From NCBI GenBank assembly GCA_027604505.1, contig JADIIX010000027.1:124001-188000 (forward strand): a stretch of DNA of 64,000 nt, read 5' to 3'. The position numbers and the translations under genes were made by a program. The notes under the pieces are model-generated. The model did not search any database. It was not told the DNA's origin and saw only the letters and a list, made by a program, of their open reading frames with translations. The DNA is from Gonapodya sp. JEL0774. Lineage: Eukaryota. Positions 16,488 through 47,560 of the stretch are shown one piece after another (within the stretch, counting starts at the first letter, position 1; each line of letters opens with the position of its first letter).

Positions 16488-19400
16488 TTAGTGTACGAAA
16501 TTGTCATTCCGGTCCGAATCCACACCCGATTCGACACTACTACGATGCTTTTTGTCGCCACACTTTCTTAGACTCTCCACGAGCTGCTCAAGACGCACAG
16601 GTTTGGCTATGTAGCCTATTTGGCACGAAACACGGGCAATTTTGTTAGTTCCGTTTTCTAATATCCGTCGTACTTCGCAACAACCTACCGTCCATCCCTG
16701 CCGCGAAACATGCCTCCCTATCGGAGACAGAGACATTCGCCGTCATAGCGAAGATAAAAGGTTGACTGGTTGCGAGTAATGGATTCGCACGGATCAGGCG
16801 GGTTGCTGAGAGGCCGTCGGTCTCCGGCATCTGCCAACTCTGGGGATCGAATGCAAGAATAAATTGAAGGACATTCGCGGTCTCACCTGGAGATCCATCA
16901 AAACAAGATCATATGGCCGATTCTCGTCGTGAGCACGCTGTTTGACTTTCTGTGCGGCCTCGGATCCGTTCACGGCCAAATCAGCAGTAAAACCCAACTT
17001 TTCGAGGAGGCGAACTACAAAACCAGAACACAATTAAGGTAATCAAAAGACGGCATTTTGAGGCAAGACGCGTACTTATCAGCTTTTGGCTGATCGAAAA
17101 GACGAGAATATGAAATTTGTTGTTAGCATAATCTGACATCCTGCAGGAAGCACCTTACGCACTTCACCAAATTATCCTCTGCAACCAAAATCGACAAAGG
17201 AAGCTCTTTTCCTAGATTGGCAAACTCGCTGGGGGTTCCGTGTCCCATTTTCCTGCGGGAACTTGATTCTCGGCCCCGGGAGGGAGAAGAAGTTGGTGAG
17301 ATTCTCGGAGTCTGCGCGTCCCTGGCGAAACCATTCGTGCGACCGCCCGACGTAGAAGTACTGCCCAAAAGAACCTCCGAGAGATTTTCAAGATCTTTCG
17401 CCAATCCAATATCTTCGTTGCCTGTGCCTTTGAGAGCTCCACCGCATTCCTCGCCAACGTTTGATGCAAGCATACCGAGTTGAACGTCAAATTGGAATGT
17501 TGATCCGACATCAACTTCACTCGTGCAACTGATTTTACCACCCATGAGCTCGACAAGACGACGGGATATCACGAGTCCCAGACCCGTCCCACCATACTTT
17601 CTTGAAGTCGAGGCGTCTACCTGCGAGAAGCTTTGAAACAAGCGATCCATTCTAGAAGGAGATATACCGATGCCCGTGTCCTTGTGTGGCGATGGGTTGT
17701 TTGGTAGATGTACTTTGGCGACTAAACATCACTTGGAGAAAACTCACCGTCACAGAGATCGTTGCGCGGCACCGTTTAACGTTGTTTTTCGTCCATGGCA
17801 CTCTCGCTGCATCGTCGATCCCATTATCAGGTTGTGCCTTCAATTCGTCTTGAATAAACGGTTCGAGCCACCACGCGGAACTCTCTCTGTCCAGTTCCGC
17901 AATAATCTCTTCCGAGCAGCAGATCTTTATTCCCACACGTCCACCTGGTGGCGTAAACTTGATCGCGTTGGCTGTGAGATTTCTAACGTAAATTTTTAGT
18001 TGATCTAGTTGCGGTCATTCTTTCAGACTGGTGTTTCGCTCACATCAGAACTTGTCGCAGCCTTCCCTCATCCCCGAGTACGATATCCGGGACATCCACA
18101 GGTGTATAGGCTACGGGTATGATCGAAGGTGAACCGGGGGTAACAGTAGAAGCCACACGTTCACTGCCCCCAAGTCGGGGAGTAATATTGTCGGGGCCTG
18201 TCTGGATGACATGGATTTCATCCCGGCCATCTTTCCCGCAGATAGACCAGCTCATGGTCAAGTTCCTCTCACGTGCCCGGACACCGAGTAGCTCTAAAAC
18301 GCCACGAACAAGGTCGGGGAGGACAAAGGGTCGAGGGTCGAGCTCGATTTTCCCAGCTTTGTGTGAACAGGTAGGGTGATCAATGTCAGCGACATTAACA
18401 GCGCGATTCAACAGCGCAGAGCAGGAGTGCAACCTTCAATTTTGCTCCAGTCCAACACATCGCTGAGGATTGTATGCAAATCGTCACCACACGTCCTGAT
18501 CGTCCGAACAAGGTCACGCTGGTTGTCATCCAAGGCGGTGTCATGAAGAAGCATAGCGTAACCAAGTATTCCTGTGAGTGGTGTTCGAATTTCGTGACTG
18601 AGAGTGCCAACGTGAGAGTTCGGGGTGTTTGCAAGATACCCGCAACCATTTATTGCTGAAACGACGGAATGTACCTGATATTCGCCAAGAATTCGCTTTT
18701 TGATCGGTTTCCAGCCTCTGCCATTTCCTTGGCCGCGTTTAGCTGTCTCTCTAGCTCCTTTTGCAGAGAGACCTGGAACGTTCTCAGAGTCAGTACATAG
18801 CCAGAAACCTTCCACCAAAGAGTGACGACTTACATCCACCAAATAAACTAGAAATAGGCCCCCGCCGGTGACAGGGTCGTTCATTCGTTTGCCATCCATG
18901 CGAAACCACCTCTCTCCATTAATAGTTCGCAGACGAACTTCGTCTACAAACACACCATTGCGGATAGATGGTGATGAAAGAGCAATACGAGCCCTCTCAG
19001 CATCCCGTTGGTCTACAAACGCAGACCTTAGCAAGTTCGATGAAATTCGTGACTTGACATTGAGGTTCTCAGGCATCGAAACTCACCACAAGTCAAACTG
19101 CGTTCCAAAGAGTGCAACGGTGAGCGAATGCTCGACTAACACTCGATATTCGGGGCTCAAAACGAGAACGCAGTAAGGTGCATGTCGAAAGGACTCCACA
19201 GATCGCTATTGAGCGAAAATGAGCTCTCTTGGATTATTGCCGAGGTAACGCAAACTTTCCTCAACGACTCACTAGAACGTTTGGAGCAACAGTGGCATGG
19301 AGGACGTTGTACGAACTCTTCAGAGGTAGCGTCAGCCTGTTTCCTAGTTGTGTGCCGAAGCTGAGCTTTGCCCGCCGAAAGAGTTGCATCGTTTGCTTTC

Positions 19401-41643: not shown

Positions 41644-43795
41644 TTACACATATGAACGTGCCAAAGTTCGAATCTCTTCTTTGAAGGATTCCGACAGCAA
41701 GTCAAGATTAATGCTGTAGATTGAAGGTAACGAGAATGGTCAAGAAGCCATTCTCTCTCAATTTGACTTGAGGAGGGTTACTCACTCATTGTAATCTGCA
41801 GGTGAAATATGAAGAACGCGATGAGCGGCTTTGCAAGTAGAGCCAATGGTGTCAACTCACCAAGACTAATGACAAAGAAACATCGAAACATTGGTCAGGG
41901 GTCGTTGGTTGTTTCGAGTTATTTTGTCCATTACCATTCCACACCGATCAACTTTGCACGGCACTGCAAAAGGACCACTCACCCGAATGGCATTTCAATA
42001 TTTCGAGCAATCATCTCCACGCCAATCAAGCAATGGGATACTAGGAATACCACAAGTATCTGCGAGGACGGACTCAATAGTTTTGTACACATTAAAAACA
42101 ACGATGCGCAAATACCACGTACCGTCCAGTAGCCCAATAAGTCAACCAGTTGCACAGGTAGAAGAAAGCAATATATAAGGAGAATTTGTCGCAGCAAGAT
42201 ATTGTAGGGTTTGGGACTAAACAAAGCAAACTGCGGTCACGAATCGTTGCCGACAAAAGTCACAGGAACATTACGACCGCGGTCAACCTACACCGGCGTG
42301 CACGCGATTCTCTCCAAGCTGGTGGCCGTCTCTACCGCCTGACTTATCAGATTTTCACAGGAGAACATGAATGGATGGAGTGAGACGACATTGTGTTCAA
42401 CACAAAGCGCAAAGAGACGCGAGAGCGACTGGGCAAGGGCAACTGCGAAATTGTGATGCACGTCATAGTCAGAACGCATGGCGACAACTTTCCTCGCCAA
42501 ACACACACAGGGAAACTTCTCGGGATGCACCGACTCCAACCTCAAAAACCAATCTCTCACAATGGGGCCTCGCGAGTCCGAAAGATCATTCGCAACAGTC
42601 TCTGATATGCTAGGAGCAGGAGTGTTATTCGTCTCCGATATACTAGGAGCAGCAGTGTTATTTGCTAGAGGAATCGGGAGCGTGGAAGGTGGAGTGCGAA
42701 AGTCCGAGCTGACGTAAGACTTCAGATCAAGGGCTTCGGAATAATAGGACTTGTCGGTCCACTGGGACGGTTCAAACTCTGCGAAAAGATCACCTTTGTT
42801 AGTGTTGGGTGAAGTTGAAAGAACCACCCGGAGCCAACTGTGCACTCCCACGGATTCTCCCTTCTAACGAGTTCCATACAGTTCGCTCAAATTTCAGCCA
42901 CTAACTTACCAGCCCTCAAATAATGTTTCACGGAGAACAAAAACGCCACAACAAGCTTGGCGACCTTTTGTGCAGCCTTGTCTCCCAGTTCAGACTTCTG
43001 AACGGTCAGTCCGGTGAAAGCAGCTCGTGCAACATTGCGAAGTTGAGATGTGAGTTGCCCCCAAAGTCGCCGGCCCTCCGAAAAGCGATCGTAAGCTTGA
43101 TTCGAGCGAAATGAAAGCATTAAAGACAGCACAGTGGAAAGCTGTGGTTTTTTGTGTTGGGAGTCGAGTAAGTACGATAAAGGTGACCACAATAGTCTTA
43201 ACATAATGCTTACAAGCGTCACCATCGGCGTTGTTGGTAGCACCACCCTGAAGTCGGACTGCTTGTTCACAATTACCACCAGAGCTGTCCAAACGGTGAC
43301 AATGAGAACGGATGGGAGAGCGTGGAGAATTACGGAGCCTCGGAAGTCAAGCGCAGTGTAGATGATGCTCTACAGGGGCAGATAGTACAGGGGGGGGGGG
43401 GGGGGGGGGGGGGAGACGTGCGCCTGTGGAAAAAATTTCCAGTGGTTCTCAATACANNNNNNNNNNTTCGGGTGACATGGAACCGCGTGAGTTGCTGCTC
43501 CACCTCCACTGCCCCGCGGCCGCCGGGGCGCCCCCGGGCGGGGCGCGGCGCGCGCCGCCCGGCCCCGCCCCGCCGCCCGGCCCCCGCCGCCCGGCGTGCG
43601 CCCGGGGGGGGGGGGCGAGACGTGCAAGAGGTGAAACACTTTCCAATGGTGCTCACTACACATGTCACTCATCCTCGCCGAGCCAGGAACCTCACAAAAA
43701 GCAAGCAGGCTCACCTCCTTCGATTCATGCACGTGTTCCTTAACTGCATCGCGCTTTATTTCTGAGGATTTGCGCGAGAACCACAGCAAATTCAT
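41644..43795 (-). CDS. Bestrophin (RFP-TM/UPF0187) anion channel
   Basis: RGSVIL.., LSLMLSFRSNQAYDRFSEGRRLWG, VKHYLR, LERIACTP, LIYCFLLP, and EMPFG|L|DYN|DINLD rebuilt from micro-exons. The 5' part is interrupted by an N-gap and the start is tentative. Confidence 0.9.
43389..43660. other. Assembly gap (10 N at 43457-43466) with low-quality poly-G/GC-rich and duplicated flanks
   Basis: Long G runs and an N run. Two divergent copies of the same approximately 45-bp sequence occur on either side (gagacgtgcgcctgtggaaaaaatttccagtggttctcaataca vs gagacgtgcaagaggtgaaacactttccaatggtgctcactaca). Confidence 0.85.
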
Positions 43796-44326: not shown

Positions 44327-47300
44327 TTACACGGACTCCTCCTTGCCGGGAAGAATCGCCTCCTTTGACTCCTCCGCCATGGCCAAATCATTGTCCGAAG
44401 AAGCCGCCTTCTTCTTCTTGAACCGGGGAATAAGTGCAGCGACACCGGCGACGATTCCCCAGTATCCAAAGTAGCTGACAACGGTCGCGACGGTTCCACT
44501 GAGAAATTTCATCAGGCAAATTCAGCAAACACAGTGCATGCCAAACAGAGGGGGGAACGACTCACATTGCTCGCCATCCCATAAATGCATTCATAATTTG
44601 GAAGAAGAAGTTCTGCTCGTGGTCGCAGCAGGCACTCATGTCAAAAATGACCGGGGACATTTCGGGGTATTCGGCGGGCATCTCTTGGGGTCCAAGAGGC
44701 TATCGACGATGATGAAGGTTATGAAAAATAACTCCCGTTTATTTTACGAGGTCATAAACACTCACAGTGGTCCAGACATTCTCCTCCTCGCCTGCCGCGT
44801 TCATAACTTGGTATGAAGTGATCATTCCTGCAGCAATGTGGTCCACGACGTGGCAGTGCAGCATCCAGGTTCCGGCATTGTTGACAGTCATTTCAACAGA
44901 ACGGAAGGTGGCAGGAAGAAGCTCCATCACATCACGACGGTGACCTCCCTCGACGAAGGTGTTGCCGTGCCAATGAGCAGTGTGCAAATCAACCTCATTG
45001 CCTGACACATGGAAAACACTCAATTTACAACCTCTTTACCAATGCCGAGAATCGGCAAAAACACCCACCAATAGCAAACACGTGCCAACGAACCCTCTCC
45101 CCCTTGATGGCAACGTAACCGTCCAAGTTGTTGTAGACACGACCGTTCACGGAGTGCATCTTGTTTGATTCATCGAACTCATCCTTAGCATCGTCACCGA
45201 GGGAGGCATAGTCAATCAATTCAGGGGTGTAGGCAGCGATGTTGACGTCACTGGAAAAAAGTTCATTTTAGCGAACATCCAGTACAGTTACCTTTCTGAT
45301 ACGCACATGTAAGTTGACATGCTCTCGTCAAAGACACCAAACAGGGAAATGAACTCGCGAGCGACATCTGTGGGGAGGTTGGTGGCGTCGTTCAAGAATC
45401 CACGCCTGTAGATGAGGATGGGGCCCACGGAGCCAGCGTAGATGTCGTTGCCCTCAGTCAAGTGTGAGTGGTAACTGGAAACACCAAAGTGTGTAAGGGA
45501 AAAGAAAATGCTCGAAGGTTTCCACCGAGAAACTTACGCCCAGAGGATGGAGTTGGGGTCGTTCACAGCTGGTCCAGATTCCTCGGCAATCGCCCAGTTG
45601 TACTGGTACGTCTCTCCAGTGTTGACTGGCGCGCCCATCATGTTCCACTGGGTGGCAGCACCTTCAGAGTCAGGGCGGTAGATGGAACCGTGGGGGTGGA
45701 TAGAAATGGGTGTCGAGGCCATGTTCTGGAACACAATCTGAACCACGTCGCCAACTTCCGCGCGGATGATGGGACCAAGGAACCCTTGCCAGTCGAACTT
45801 GGCCTTGCGGGTGGTAAAGGTATCGTCGGTGTACTCGTAGTAGAGGGCCTTGATGTACCGGGATCCGATTTTGTTCGGGGCGTGAAGGGTGAACACACCG
45901 GCAGTATCCTTCTCGAGCACCAAGGGGTTGCCAGAAACATGGTCGTATCCGGAAGGAGCTAAAATCCAGAATCGAGTGCGATGGGCATCACTACACGATC
46001 ACGAACGACGACGCACACTGAGACTCACCGTAGTCCCATTCGGTCTCCTCAGCGGCAATGTAGTAAGTGCGAACCTTGCACGTGGTCCTGGCAGTGCCGT
46101 TGAGAGAAGGGCAGTGCACATTCTCGGCATTGAGCTCAATCTTCGGTCCGGAAAGGGGTGCCTCTGCGCGCTTACGGAACGAGTTGGTGGAGACGTGCGA
46201 AGTCTTCTCGGGGTATGTAAGACCCGCATTAGCAAGCTGGAAGGTTTGTCGCAAAAACGCAAAGCAGAAAGATGAGAAAATGATTCCAGCTTCAGACAAA
46301 AAATGATTCCAGCTTCAGACAAATCAGATCGGGAAACACTCACAGCAGTCTTCAGGGAATCCGGGGTAATCGGAGCTGGGTACGAGGCGTAAAGGGTGTT
46401 GTTCTTTGCTTCGGCGCTCTTGATGTAGCCAAATTCCTCAAATTCGTGGGCAGCGTTGGCAGCAAGACCGGCCGAGATGATGAACATGAAGATGGCCGAG
46501 TAGAACAAGAAAGTCTTGAGTTTGAGCTGGGCGAATCCACTGTGGAGGAGCTTGCCGACCAAGATACCGAGGAAAATACCGAGAAGACCGGGAATGATGA
46601 TCGAGTACGGTTCACCTTGACCAACCTTTTGTTGAGAAGTAAAAGTGAGGCTTAAACACAGAATAAATATCGACCAGGAGAAAAGAGATCGGAACTTACA
46701 CCTGTGAGGAAGATCACCGATTCGAGACCTTCACGTAGAACAACAGAGAAAGTGAGGAAAAAGAGCGCCCAGGGTCTGTCAACTTGTTTGCTTTCTTCGG
46801 TGTCTTTGACAACAAAGTCCTTCTTGGTGGAGGCGTCGTCGGAACTGGAGTCCACGACTGTCACAGAGGATTCAGCACGGTTGACTTCAACCTCGGTCTC
46901 GGGTGTTCCAAGGCGTTCCTTGGCAATTTCCTTCTTGGCGGTTTCGGCGAGACCGGCCTTGAGCATCCGGCGTTCCCATTTCGCCTCGAGGTCACCGGCA
47001 TGGAGCATACCGAAACCCATGATGGTGAGGAGAATGCACGCGAGGAACTTGAAAGAGCCCTCCCTGTGAGAAAAGAATAATCACGAGATTGAGCACAGCT
47101 GAGGACTTGGAGAAAAGGGACAGGGACGAAACCCACCACACGGGTTCGAAAGAACCGAAGAGGTCCTTCTTGAGGACATAGAAGACAACTGAGAACGCGA
47201 TTCCTACGAGAATCGAAATAGCCAGTCCGAGTCCAACTCCCAACCAAATCTGCTTCCGCAGGCGCTTGACTAGGGCAGGGTGACGCGAAGCCGTCTTCTG

Positions 47301-47560
47301 GACGAAGTTGAGAAGAACCCCAATGACCACCGCAGCCTCCAGGGCCTCACGGAACAGAATAAACAGAGCACCTGGGAGTTTTGTTGGAAAGAATACGAGG
47401 ATCAGGGAAAACTGAATCACCGGGAGTTCGCGGGCATACTCGTCCCAGCGCGTCCAGCGGATGGATGCTTCCGTCCCACATTTCCGGTAGATATATCATG
47501 GTTCCAGGTCCAAGAAGTGATGTGCCCAGACTCACCAGCGTTGAAAAGATTAGTGGGCAT
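44327..47560 (-). CDS. FTR1: FTR1 iron permease with an inserted two-domain ceruloplasmin-like multicopper ferroxidase (808 aa, 11 exons)
   Basis: Exons: 47560-47536, 47371-47137, 47063-46700, 46625-46344, 46236-46029, 45958-45538, 45474-45307, 45250-45069, 45001-44766, 44699-44566, 44498-44327. All introns are GT-AG and phase-consistent, total 2427 nt. Ftr1 motifs: FREALE, WEG, LREGLE, CC..NAFMGW..SYFGYW. MCO motifs: HPHG, YHSH, HTAHWHG, HCHVVDHIAAGM. Confidence 0.93.
46277..46322. repeat. 23-bp perfect tandem duplication inside the intron joining the FTR1 and oxidase parts
   Basis: aaaatgattccagcttcagacaa x2. Confidence 0.9.

Follow-up and report, generated by a model that had tools for sequence, protein, structure and literature searches.

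In a 64000-nucleotide stretch of the Gonapodya sp. JEL0774 genome (forward strand of contig JADIIX010000027.1, positions 124001–188000; hereafter the window), a minus-strand gene at 47560..44327 encodes an FTR1 iron permease with a multicopper oxidase inserted in extracellular loop 6, between transmembrane helices (TMs) 6 and 7. The gene comprises 11 exons and 808 codons (coding 47560..44330) and ends in a TAA stop at 44327–44329. Its product corresponds to residues 1–808 of the database protein 'hephaestin-like 1 [Gonapodya sp. JEL0774]' (P0002), which matched the window exons at 100%, in agreement with tblastn, and threaded onto the DNA as 11 exons separated by ten introns of 56–164 nt, all of them GT-AG. 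The only public names that we met for the fused form were 'hephaestin-like 1' and 'Cupredoxin'.

The permease was recognized by Pfam FTR1 (PF03239) with an E-value of 3.3e-39 on the whole protein (residues 10–274), and FTR1 was also matched by the exons flanking the insert. An AlphaFold2 (AF2) model contained seven TMs, six before the insert and one after it. The first part of the permease, TM1–TM6 (46383..47560), was modelled as helices at residues 8–38, 40–74, 80–137, 186–207, 215–239 and 244–288, with one RExxE motif in TM1 (REALE, residue 16, 47337–47351) and another in TM4 (REGLE, residue 197, 46721–46735); TM6 ended in AHEFEE (46434–46451). The second part (44330..44609) held TM7, a helix starting at residue 738, and a basic cytoplasmic tail (RFKKKK...), which in the model fits an N-out, C-in topology. 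Two linkers, both poorly structured in the model, joined the permease to the oxidase: residues 289–355 on the N-side (46078..46382, containing intron 4), where the predicted local distance difference test (pLDDT) scores were low to middling, and residues 698–737 on the C-side (44610..44795), which were disordered and ended in DMSACCDHE (44616–44642).

The insertion point was located by alignment with uninserted FTR1 proteins of Quaeritorhiza (P0280) and Clydaea (P0291). The insert of approximately 430 residues lay between AHEFEE and the WDAS.CCSE-type motif that precedes TM7, and TM7 itself aligned with TM7 of both uninserted proteins. The full form of this motif is of the type P-E-x-x-P-x-W-D-A-S-x-C-C-S-E, and the Gonapodya version, DMSACCDHE, aligned with WDASGCCSE of uninserted chytrid FTR1. 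In yeast Ftr1, loop 6 is extracellular and holds a DASE motif (246–249) that is needed for contact with Fet3 and for iron channelling, according to the accessible part of a review (PMC11817551). From the alignment we infer that the chytrid loop-6 motif DMSACCDHE would be the equivalent of yeast DASE.

Two pairs of cysteine residues were observed at the borders of the insert. Cys344 and Cys355, just before oxidase domain 1 (window about 46078–46113), were conserved in all of the fused and free fungal homologues, and the Cys-Cys doublet of the loop-6 motif (residues 731–732) was common to the uninserted chytrid FTR1 proteins; both may represent disulfides or metal contacts. Intron 4 (107 nt), which separates the permease part from the linker exon, carried an approximately 24-base motif, aaaatgattccagcttcagacaaa, twice in tandem (window about 46278–46325).

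Class and metal sites of the inserted oxidase

The oxidase module occupied 44796–46077 (residues 356–697). Domain 1 (45390..46077, residues 356–540) was matched by Pfam Cu-oxidase_3 on its exon (6.6e-8) and domain 2 (44796..45389, residues 541–697) by Cu-oxidase_2 on its exon (8.2e-10). An original prediction, made from the letters of the window without database searches, had placed a two-domain ceruloplasmin-type oxidase at 44790–46090, a range that proved accurate. All of the motifs that it quoted were found in the minus-strand translation, namely RTYYIAAEETEWDY, IGSRYIKALYYEYTDDTF, GFLGPIIRAEVGD, HPHG and YHSH in domain 1, and MHSVNG, GNEVDLHTAHWHG and GTWMLHCHVVDHIAAGM in domain 2. Its count of only two cupredoxin domains was upheld by a single profile match, by the AF2 model and by the short introns. 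A profile of the module matched the Gonapodya protein once (356–696). Of 15 long proteins of the six-domain type, 11 gave three matches each, as seen in animal hephaestins and ceruloplasmins, and the other four gave fragmented or partial matches. The AF2 model contained exactly two beta-rich domains within residues 356–697, with a pLDDT of 90–98. A third cupredoxin domain concealed in the ten introns was ruled out, because introns of this length are too short to hold one.

The prediction had further counted ten histidine residues, one cysteine and an axial methionine as copper ligands, and all 12 were located in the translation. His459, His461, His514, His516, His638, His640, His677 and His679 form the trinuclear set, and His635, Cys678, His683 and Met688 the type 1 (T1) set. 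In the alignment of domain 2 to human ceruloplasmin (1kcw), the T1 ligands fell on ceruloplasmin residues 975, 1021, 1026 and 1031, and the trinuclear histidines of this domain on 978, 980, 1020 and 1022. The ligand motifs of domain 1 were HPH (45690–45698) and HSH (45462–45470), whose histidine residues were present in 71/71 rows of an alignment of relatives (alignment A1), and those of domain 2 were HTAHWH (44967–44984) and HCHVVDHIAAGM (44823–44858). Across the 71 rows, seven of the ligands were retained in all and the other five in 68–70, the misses being truncated partial proteins. The T1 site was confined to domain 2, also as predicted, because domain 1 has His514-Ser515-His516 where domain 2 has His677-Cys678-His679.

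The assignment to the ceruloplasmin/hephaestin type, rather than to the Fet3/laccase type, was favoured alike by sequence search, Foldseek and VIA-align. In phmmer searches of the PDB the domain-1 exon matched ceruloplasmin at 1.9e-65 and two-domain laccases of the SLAC type at about 1e-7, and Fet3 (1zpu) was not among the best 60 of its 79 PDB matches. For the domain-2 exon the values were 9.9e-48 for ceruloplasmin and 1.5e-3 for Fet3 (1zpu), with no two-domain laccases among the matches listed. Coagulation factors V and VIII ranked after ceruloplasmin in these searches. Foldseek returned ceruloplasmin at 1.9e-39 with 37% identity, and two-domain laccases with a TM-score of 0.72–0.75 per target. 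VIA-align superposed residues 340–701 of the model on residues 343–703 of human ceruloplasmin (domains 3–4) with Z 48.0 and a root mean square deviation (rmsd) of 2.6 Å over 349 aligned residues; the SLAC-type protomers gave Z 24.5–24.7 and rmsd 2.1–2.4 Å over 240–246 aligned residues of chains of 269–281. Grouping with Fet3 and laccases was thus ruled out, given two domains only and, for the domain-2 exon, the two E-values above. Type B two-domain multicopper oxidases (2dMCOs) are defined by a T1 site in the C-terminal domain (PMC13151041, accessible part). Judged by the position of its T1 motif, the module is of type B under this published definition.

The substrate site also resembled that of ceruloplasmin. 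In ceruloplasmin, the Fe(II) site of domain 6 consists of Glu935, His940 and Asp1025 with Glu272 from domain 2, and that of domain 4 of Glu597, His602 and Asp684 with Glu971 from domain 6, as given in the accessible part of PMC11817551. Residue-by-residue alignment to human ceruloplasmin (1kcw) placed Glu595, His600, Asp682 and Glu631 of the Gonapodya protein at Glu935, His940, Asp1025 and Glu272/Glu971 respectively (Glu595 and His600 at 45154–45171, Glu631 at 44994–44996 and Asp682 at 44841–44843). Retention in the family was high, with 63/71 rows for Glu595, 62/71 for His600, 68/71 for Asp682 and 69/71 for Glu631. The insert is therefore predicted, from these residues and the permease around them, to act as a built-in ferroxidase.

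Distribution and phylogeny

Relatives of the permease were sought with exon 4 (TM5–TM6) as the query against 1.84 billion representative proteins (E <= 1e-3), which returned 54 FTR1 relatives, six of them with the oxidase module. The named carriers of the inserted form were Hyaloraphidium curvatum, Cladochytrium replicatum and Nowakowskiella (two paralogues), and three further ones were metagenome proteins. Quaeritorhiza haematococci had an ordinary uninserted FTR1 (P0280) together with a separate oxidase (P0053) that carries a signal peptide and a C-terminal anchor. These two genes appear to lie on different contigs (15352 and 12925 bases). It is plausible that the separate genes of Quaeritorhiza give a picture of the state before the insertion.

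Stand-alone two-domain relatives of 179–573 amino acids were very common, making up 3344 of 3813 candidates at E <= 1e-10. On prokaryote contigs (one genome per species), at least 535 of the 585 pattern matches encoded a relative; they came from Actinomycetota, Acidobacteriota, Gemmatimonadota, Thaumarchaeota, Nitrosomonas and others. The neighbourhoods of 80 such loci were scanned for open reading frames (ORFs) of at least 120 amino acids within 3.5 kb of the relative. Among the 437 ORFs obtained, one RExxE motif with at least three hydrophobic segments was found in four and two motifs in none. Pfam analysis of 123 of them (the nearest ORF on each side of 62 loci, and three of the four RExxE candidates) gave no FTR1 at E <= 1e-8 and no recurring family. 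An ancient oxidase–permease pairing at the operon level was therefore rejected, no FTR1 having been found among the sampled prokaryotic neighbours. At a single locus (7093–8958 of L040, a Rhodothermia metagenome-assembled genome), the two-domain relative adjoined a second multicopper oxidase gene (Cu-oxidase_3 plus Cu-oxidase_2), the sole such case in the 123 ORFs.

A tree of 80 rows was built with IQ-TREE under LG+C20 (posterior mean site frequency approximation), with support given as ultrafast bootstrap/Shimodaira–Hasegawa-like approximate likelihood ratio test; it was unrooted and had no outgroup. The rows comprised 27 units of nine animal proteins, five units of two protist six-domain proteins, eight fungal and two Tribonema sequences, six named prokaryotes and 32 metagenome sequences. 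Sequences that covered fewer than 300 profile positions (six of 38 metagenome candidates, and a single protist unit) were left out, as were four of the long proteins examined with the module profile. The five fused-type rows (the window protein, a partial protein of G. prolifera, the two Nowakowskiella paralogues and metagenome protein P0084) formed one clade (99/96), and fungi with Tribonema formed another around it (95/86). All of the animal units fell in a clade of their own (100/99), within which the first, second and third units were each grouped (100/96, 100/96 and 99/93 respectively). We read this, from the sequences, as a single insertion event and as an indication that the fungal unit did not arise by shortening of an animal protein.

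Prokaryote and metagenome rows, 37 of 38, made up a clade with 97/85 support. Recent transfer from the sampled bacteria was set aside, since the fungal clade was not nested in the prokaryotic one; this is weak evidence, because the prokaryotes were sampled only as best matches to a fungal query. The deep branching was weak (81/73). A clade of fungi, Tribonema and animals, a group chosen after the tree had been seen, was not rejected (p-AU 0.60 in the approximately unbiased test, log-likelihood 2.9 above the free tree). The tree is compatible with descent of the fungal unit from an untriplicated opisthokont gene, and does not settle the choice between descent and horizontal transfer.

Two further groupings concern other eukaryotes. 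The units of each protist six-domain oxidase grouped together (P0168, eukprot g76860, 100/99; P0030, MMETSP1310, 98/92 on long branches), a pattern that suggests independent triplications or concerted evolution. The stand-alone two-domain oxidases of the yellow-green alga Tribonema minus (P0075 and P0145) lay inside the fungal clade (97/89 for a nine-row group), which may reflect a gene passed from one eukaryote to another or an old gene that they have in common.

Oligomeric state and alternative explanations

In ceruloplasmin and SLAC, the trinuclear copper site is built with another domain pair or another chain. The predicted packing of domain 1 against domain 2 in the Gonapodya model was, by VIA-align, that of an odd–even domain pair of ceruloplasmin and of a SLAC protomer. 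A single chain carries both half-sites, those corresponding to 'domain 1' and 'domain 6' of ceruloplasmin, and has no bridging domain. The 2dMCOs form trimers in which neighbouring protomers enclose the trinuclear site (PMC13151041, accessible part). Because the domain pair matches both the SLAC protomer and the ceruloplasmin pair, because 2dMCOs are trimeric, and because both half-sites lie on one chain with nothing to bridge them, we consider it quite probable that the oxidase module assembles as a homotrimer, as the original prediction had proposed. The iron site leads in the same direction: the fourth Fe(II) residue, which in ceruloplasmin comes from the neighbouring even domain, would in a two-domain ring come from the neighbouring chain. 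By analogy with these proteins, then, the copper cluster and the substrate site would both point to an oligomer.

The position of the module in a permease loop can be reconciled with such a ring. Only about 12–15 residues separate one two-domain unit of a hephaestin from the next, which should bring the two ends of each unit near to one another, and the free fungal homologues P0053 and P0080 have a membrane anchor at the C-terminus. Taken together, the short inter-unit linkers and the C-terminal anchors suggest that a unit has its two ends on the membrane side, so that a loop is a topologically plausible place for it to be inserted.

In the mechanism that we propose, each trinuclear copper site would be assembled across a chain boundary, with domain 1 supplied by one chain and domain 2 by the next. 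The Fe(II) site next to every T1 copper would likewise be shared, with Glu595, His600 and Asp682 from one chain and Glu631 from its neighbour. The cross-chain role of Glu631 is modelled on Glu272 and Glu971, which act between domains in ceruloplasmin. Oxidation of Fe(II) would take place at the ring, and the permease underneath would receive the Fe(III) at its loop-6 acidic motif and RExxE helices. The result would be a 3:3 oxidase–permease particle of fixed stoichiometry, three permeases lying under one iron-oxidizing cap. We know of no established oligomeric state for FTR1. Taking the parts together, an FTR1 with a type-B, ceruloplasmin-type insert in loop 6, predicted to be a built-in ferroxidase and likely to be homotrimeric, is in our judgement the probable explanation of this gene.

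Several points weigh against this explanation. The AF2 model may merely echo the ceruloplasmin structures of its training set, and its membrane part (pLDDT 55–78) rests on few FTR1 sequences; the splice pattern is based on homology and canonical splice sites only; the ferroxidase specificity was deduced from the four conserved residues and the permease context; no enzymatic data for members of this oxidase subfamily were found in the literature; and the type-B 2dMCO of Cellvibrio behaves as a slow laccase (PMC13151041, accessible part). The insert might accordingly be an oxidase for some other substrate (laccase-like, a cuprous oxidase or a Mn oxidase) or a non-catalytic structural cap. A bacterial type-B enzyme that works as a laccase fits this alternative, as do the labels 'manganese oxidase' and 'FtsP/CotA-like' that some relatives carry in their sources, the lack of FTR1 in the 123 ORFs nearest to prokaryotic relatives, and the non-catalytic use of the ceruloplasmin fold in factors V and VIII. 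However, the module keeps all 12 copper ligands and all four residues of the ceruloplasmin Fe(II) site, it occupies the loop through which yeast Ftr1 contacts Fet3, and the fusion is conserved across chytrid orders, so that we regard another substrate or a mere cap as unlikely.

It is still less likely, in our view, that the oxidase works in a single chain, with domains 1 and 2 repacked to form an intramolecular trinuclear site or with a functional monomer. The long flexible linkers (290–355 and 698–737) would permit the module to rearrange relative to the membrane, but the linker between domains 1 and 2 is short and their modelled packing (pLDDT 90–98) puts the two half-sites on opposite faces. 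Three-domain oxidases, moreover, need a whole extra domain as a bridge and there is none here, and all characterized 2dMCOs are described as trimers in the accessible part of PMC13151041. The least credible alternative is that annotation wrongly joined separate FTR1 and oxidase genes. The exon joins do depend on homology and canonical sites, and the public model P0002 demonstrably runs too far in the 3' direction, into a Bestrophin_2 gene. Nevertheless, the oxidase lies inside one permease, between TM6 and TM7, and not beside it; the TM7 that follows aligns with that of uninserted FTR1; the ten short GT-AG introns keep the frame through 808 codons to the stop; and four other named taxa, each assembled independently, show the same arrangement, as do metagenomes. 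A joining artefact is thus highly improbable.

A bolder extension of the trimeric ferroxidase–permease can be entertained, although we hold it to be doubtful. FTR1 itself might be an obligate trimer, with three pores under one ceruloplasmin-like ring, copper and Fe(II) sites made by neighbouring chains, and oxidation and import coupled across subunits; the fused or paired system might then be the ancestral opisthokont ferroxidase–permease, triplicated to give animal ceruloplasmin and hephaestin and later replaced by Fet3 in higher fungi.

Beyond the TAA stop at 44327–44329, P0002 continued for a further 253 residues taken from the Bestrophin_2 gene at 42291–43369 (window 42291–43620). This extra tail spanned an assembly gap, a run of N at 43459–43468 with long poly-G and GC-rich low-complexity stretches on either side, and looks like a downstream Bestrophin_2-family neighbour merged by annotation. 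Among 49 further window ORFs (mostly of at least 140 amino acids) submitted to Pfam, a scan that intron-split genes could escape, no other oxidase, permease or ferric reductase was found. ORFs with HisKA and HATPase_c at window 17126–19082 (minus strand) indicate a histidine kinase gene. Other ORFs matched protein kinase, a Cys/Met pyridoxal phosphate (PLP) enzyme, EMG1/NEP1, PP2C, cyclophilin and class 3 lipase, none of them related to iron uptake.

Comparison with known systems

Coupling of a ferroxidase to a permease is textbook metabolite channelling, as in yeast Fet3–Ftr1 and in animal ceruloplasmin/hephaestin with ferroportin. The full-text literature, subscription papers being outside the scope of the search, yielded no account of an FTR1 with an inserted oxidase, and neither did one review. 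The fused form would bring this coupling into one polypeptide, the predicted ferroxidase being a ceruloplasmin-type enzyme of two domains. Such a natural single-chain form would fix the stoichiometry and bring the oxidase to precisely the loop that has been linked with channelling. No structure of a ferroxidase–permease complex is cited in the accessible part of the review PMC11817551. If the trimer is true, the 3:3 particle that it predicts would be a favourable target for cryo-electron microscopy. The fused form also means that early fungi pair FTR1 with a ceruloplasmin-type rather than a Fet3-type enzyme, and that a living two-domain relative exists outside the animal triplication, which bears on the origin of the six-domain ferroxidases and of the factor V/VIII scaffold.

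The idea that a two-domain ceruloplasmin-like oxidase should be a trimer is not new, because a trimer has already been modelled in print for FOYG_17127 of Fusarium oxysporum, a secreted ceruloplasmin homologue of two domains that has relatives in bacteria and archaea (PMC6994591, accessible part). Its authors built that model on 1KCW, 3CG8 and 3G5W, and read the gene, which lies on a lineage-specific chromosome, as horizontally transferred (PMC6994591, accessible part). Unlike the Gonapodya module, FOYG_17127 is free and secreted and has no link to a permease.

Among the well-known enzymes, ceruloplasmin and hephaestin were the most similar, with 36–38% identity, Z 43–48 and rmsd 1.7–2.9 Å over 343–350 residues, and with the motifs HxH, HxxHxH and HCHxxxHxxxxM and the Fe(II)-site residues in common. 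They differ in having three two-domain units per chain (six domains), whereas Gonapodya has one, and in being secreted or C-terminally anchored instead of lying in a permease loop. The Gonapodya unit keeps both trinuclear half-sites, which in ceruloplasmin only the domain 1/domain 6 pair does, and it falls outside the clade that holds all animal units (100/99). Six-domain oxidases are said, in the scheme of Nakamura and Go, to have been derived from two-domain trimers. The type-B 2dMCOs (SLAC, Ssl1 and SgfSL of Streptomyces, and CjMCO) share two cupredoxin domains, a C-terminal T1 site and a superposable protomer with the module. However, identity to the SLAC-type enzymes was only 27–29% in structural alignment (E about 1e-7, compared with 1e-65 for ceruloplasmin), the module carries the iron-site residues of ceruloplasmin, and its trimer, unlike theirs, is a proposal drawn from these comparisons.

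Chlamydomonas pairs a ceruloplasmin-like FOX1 with FTR1. Yeast Fet3p–Ftr1p combines an FTR1 that has two RExxE motifs with an extracellular copper ferroxidase at loop 6, beside an acidic motif (PMC11817551, accessible part), but in Gonapodya the partner is covalently inserted, 1:1 per chain, and is a two-domain enzyme of the ceruloplasmin type instead of the three-domain Fet3. Nearer to the module itself are the free oxidases of Quaeritorhiza (P0053) and Paraphysoderma (P0080), which belong to the same subfamily and the same eukaryotic clade (95/86) and have all of the ligands and the cysteine pair before domain 1, but which carry a signal peptide and a C-terminal anchor where the Gonapodya oxidase is inserted in its permease.

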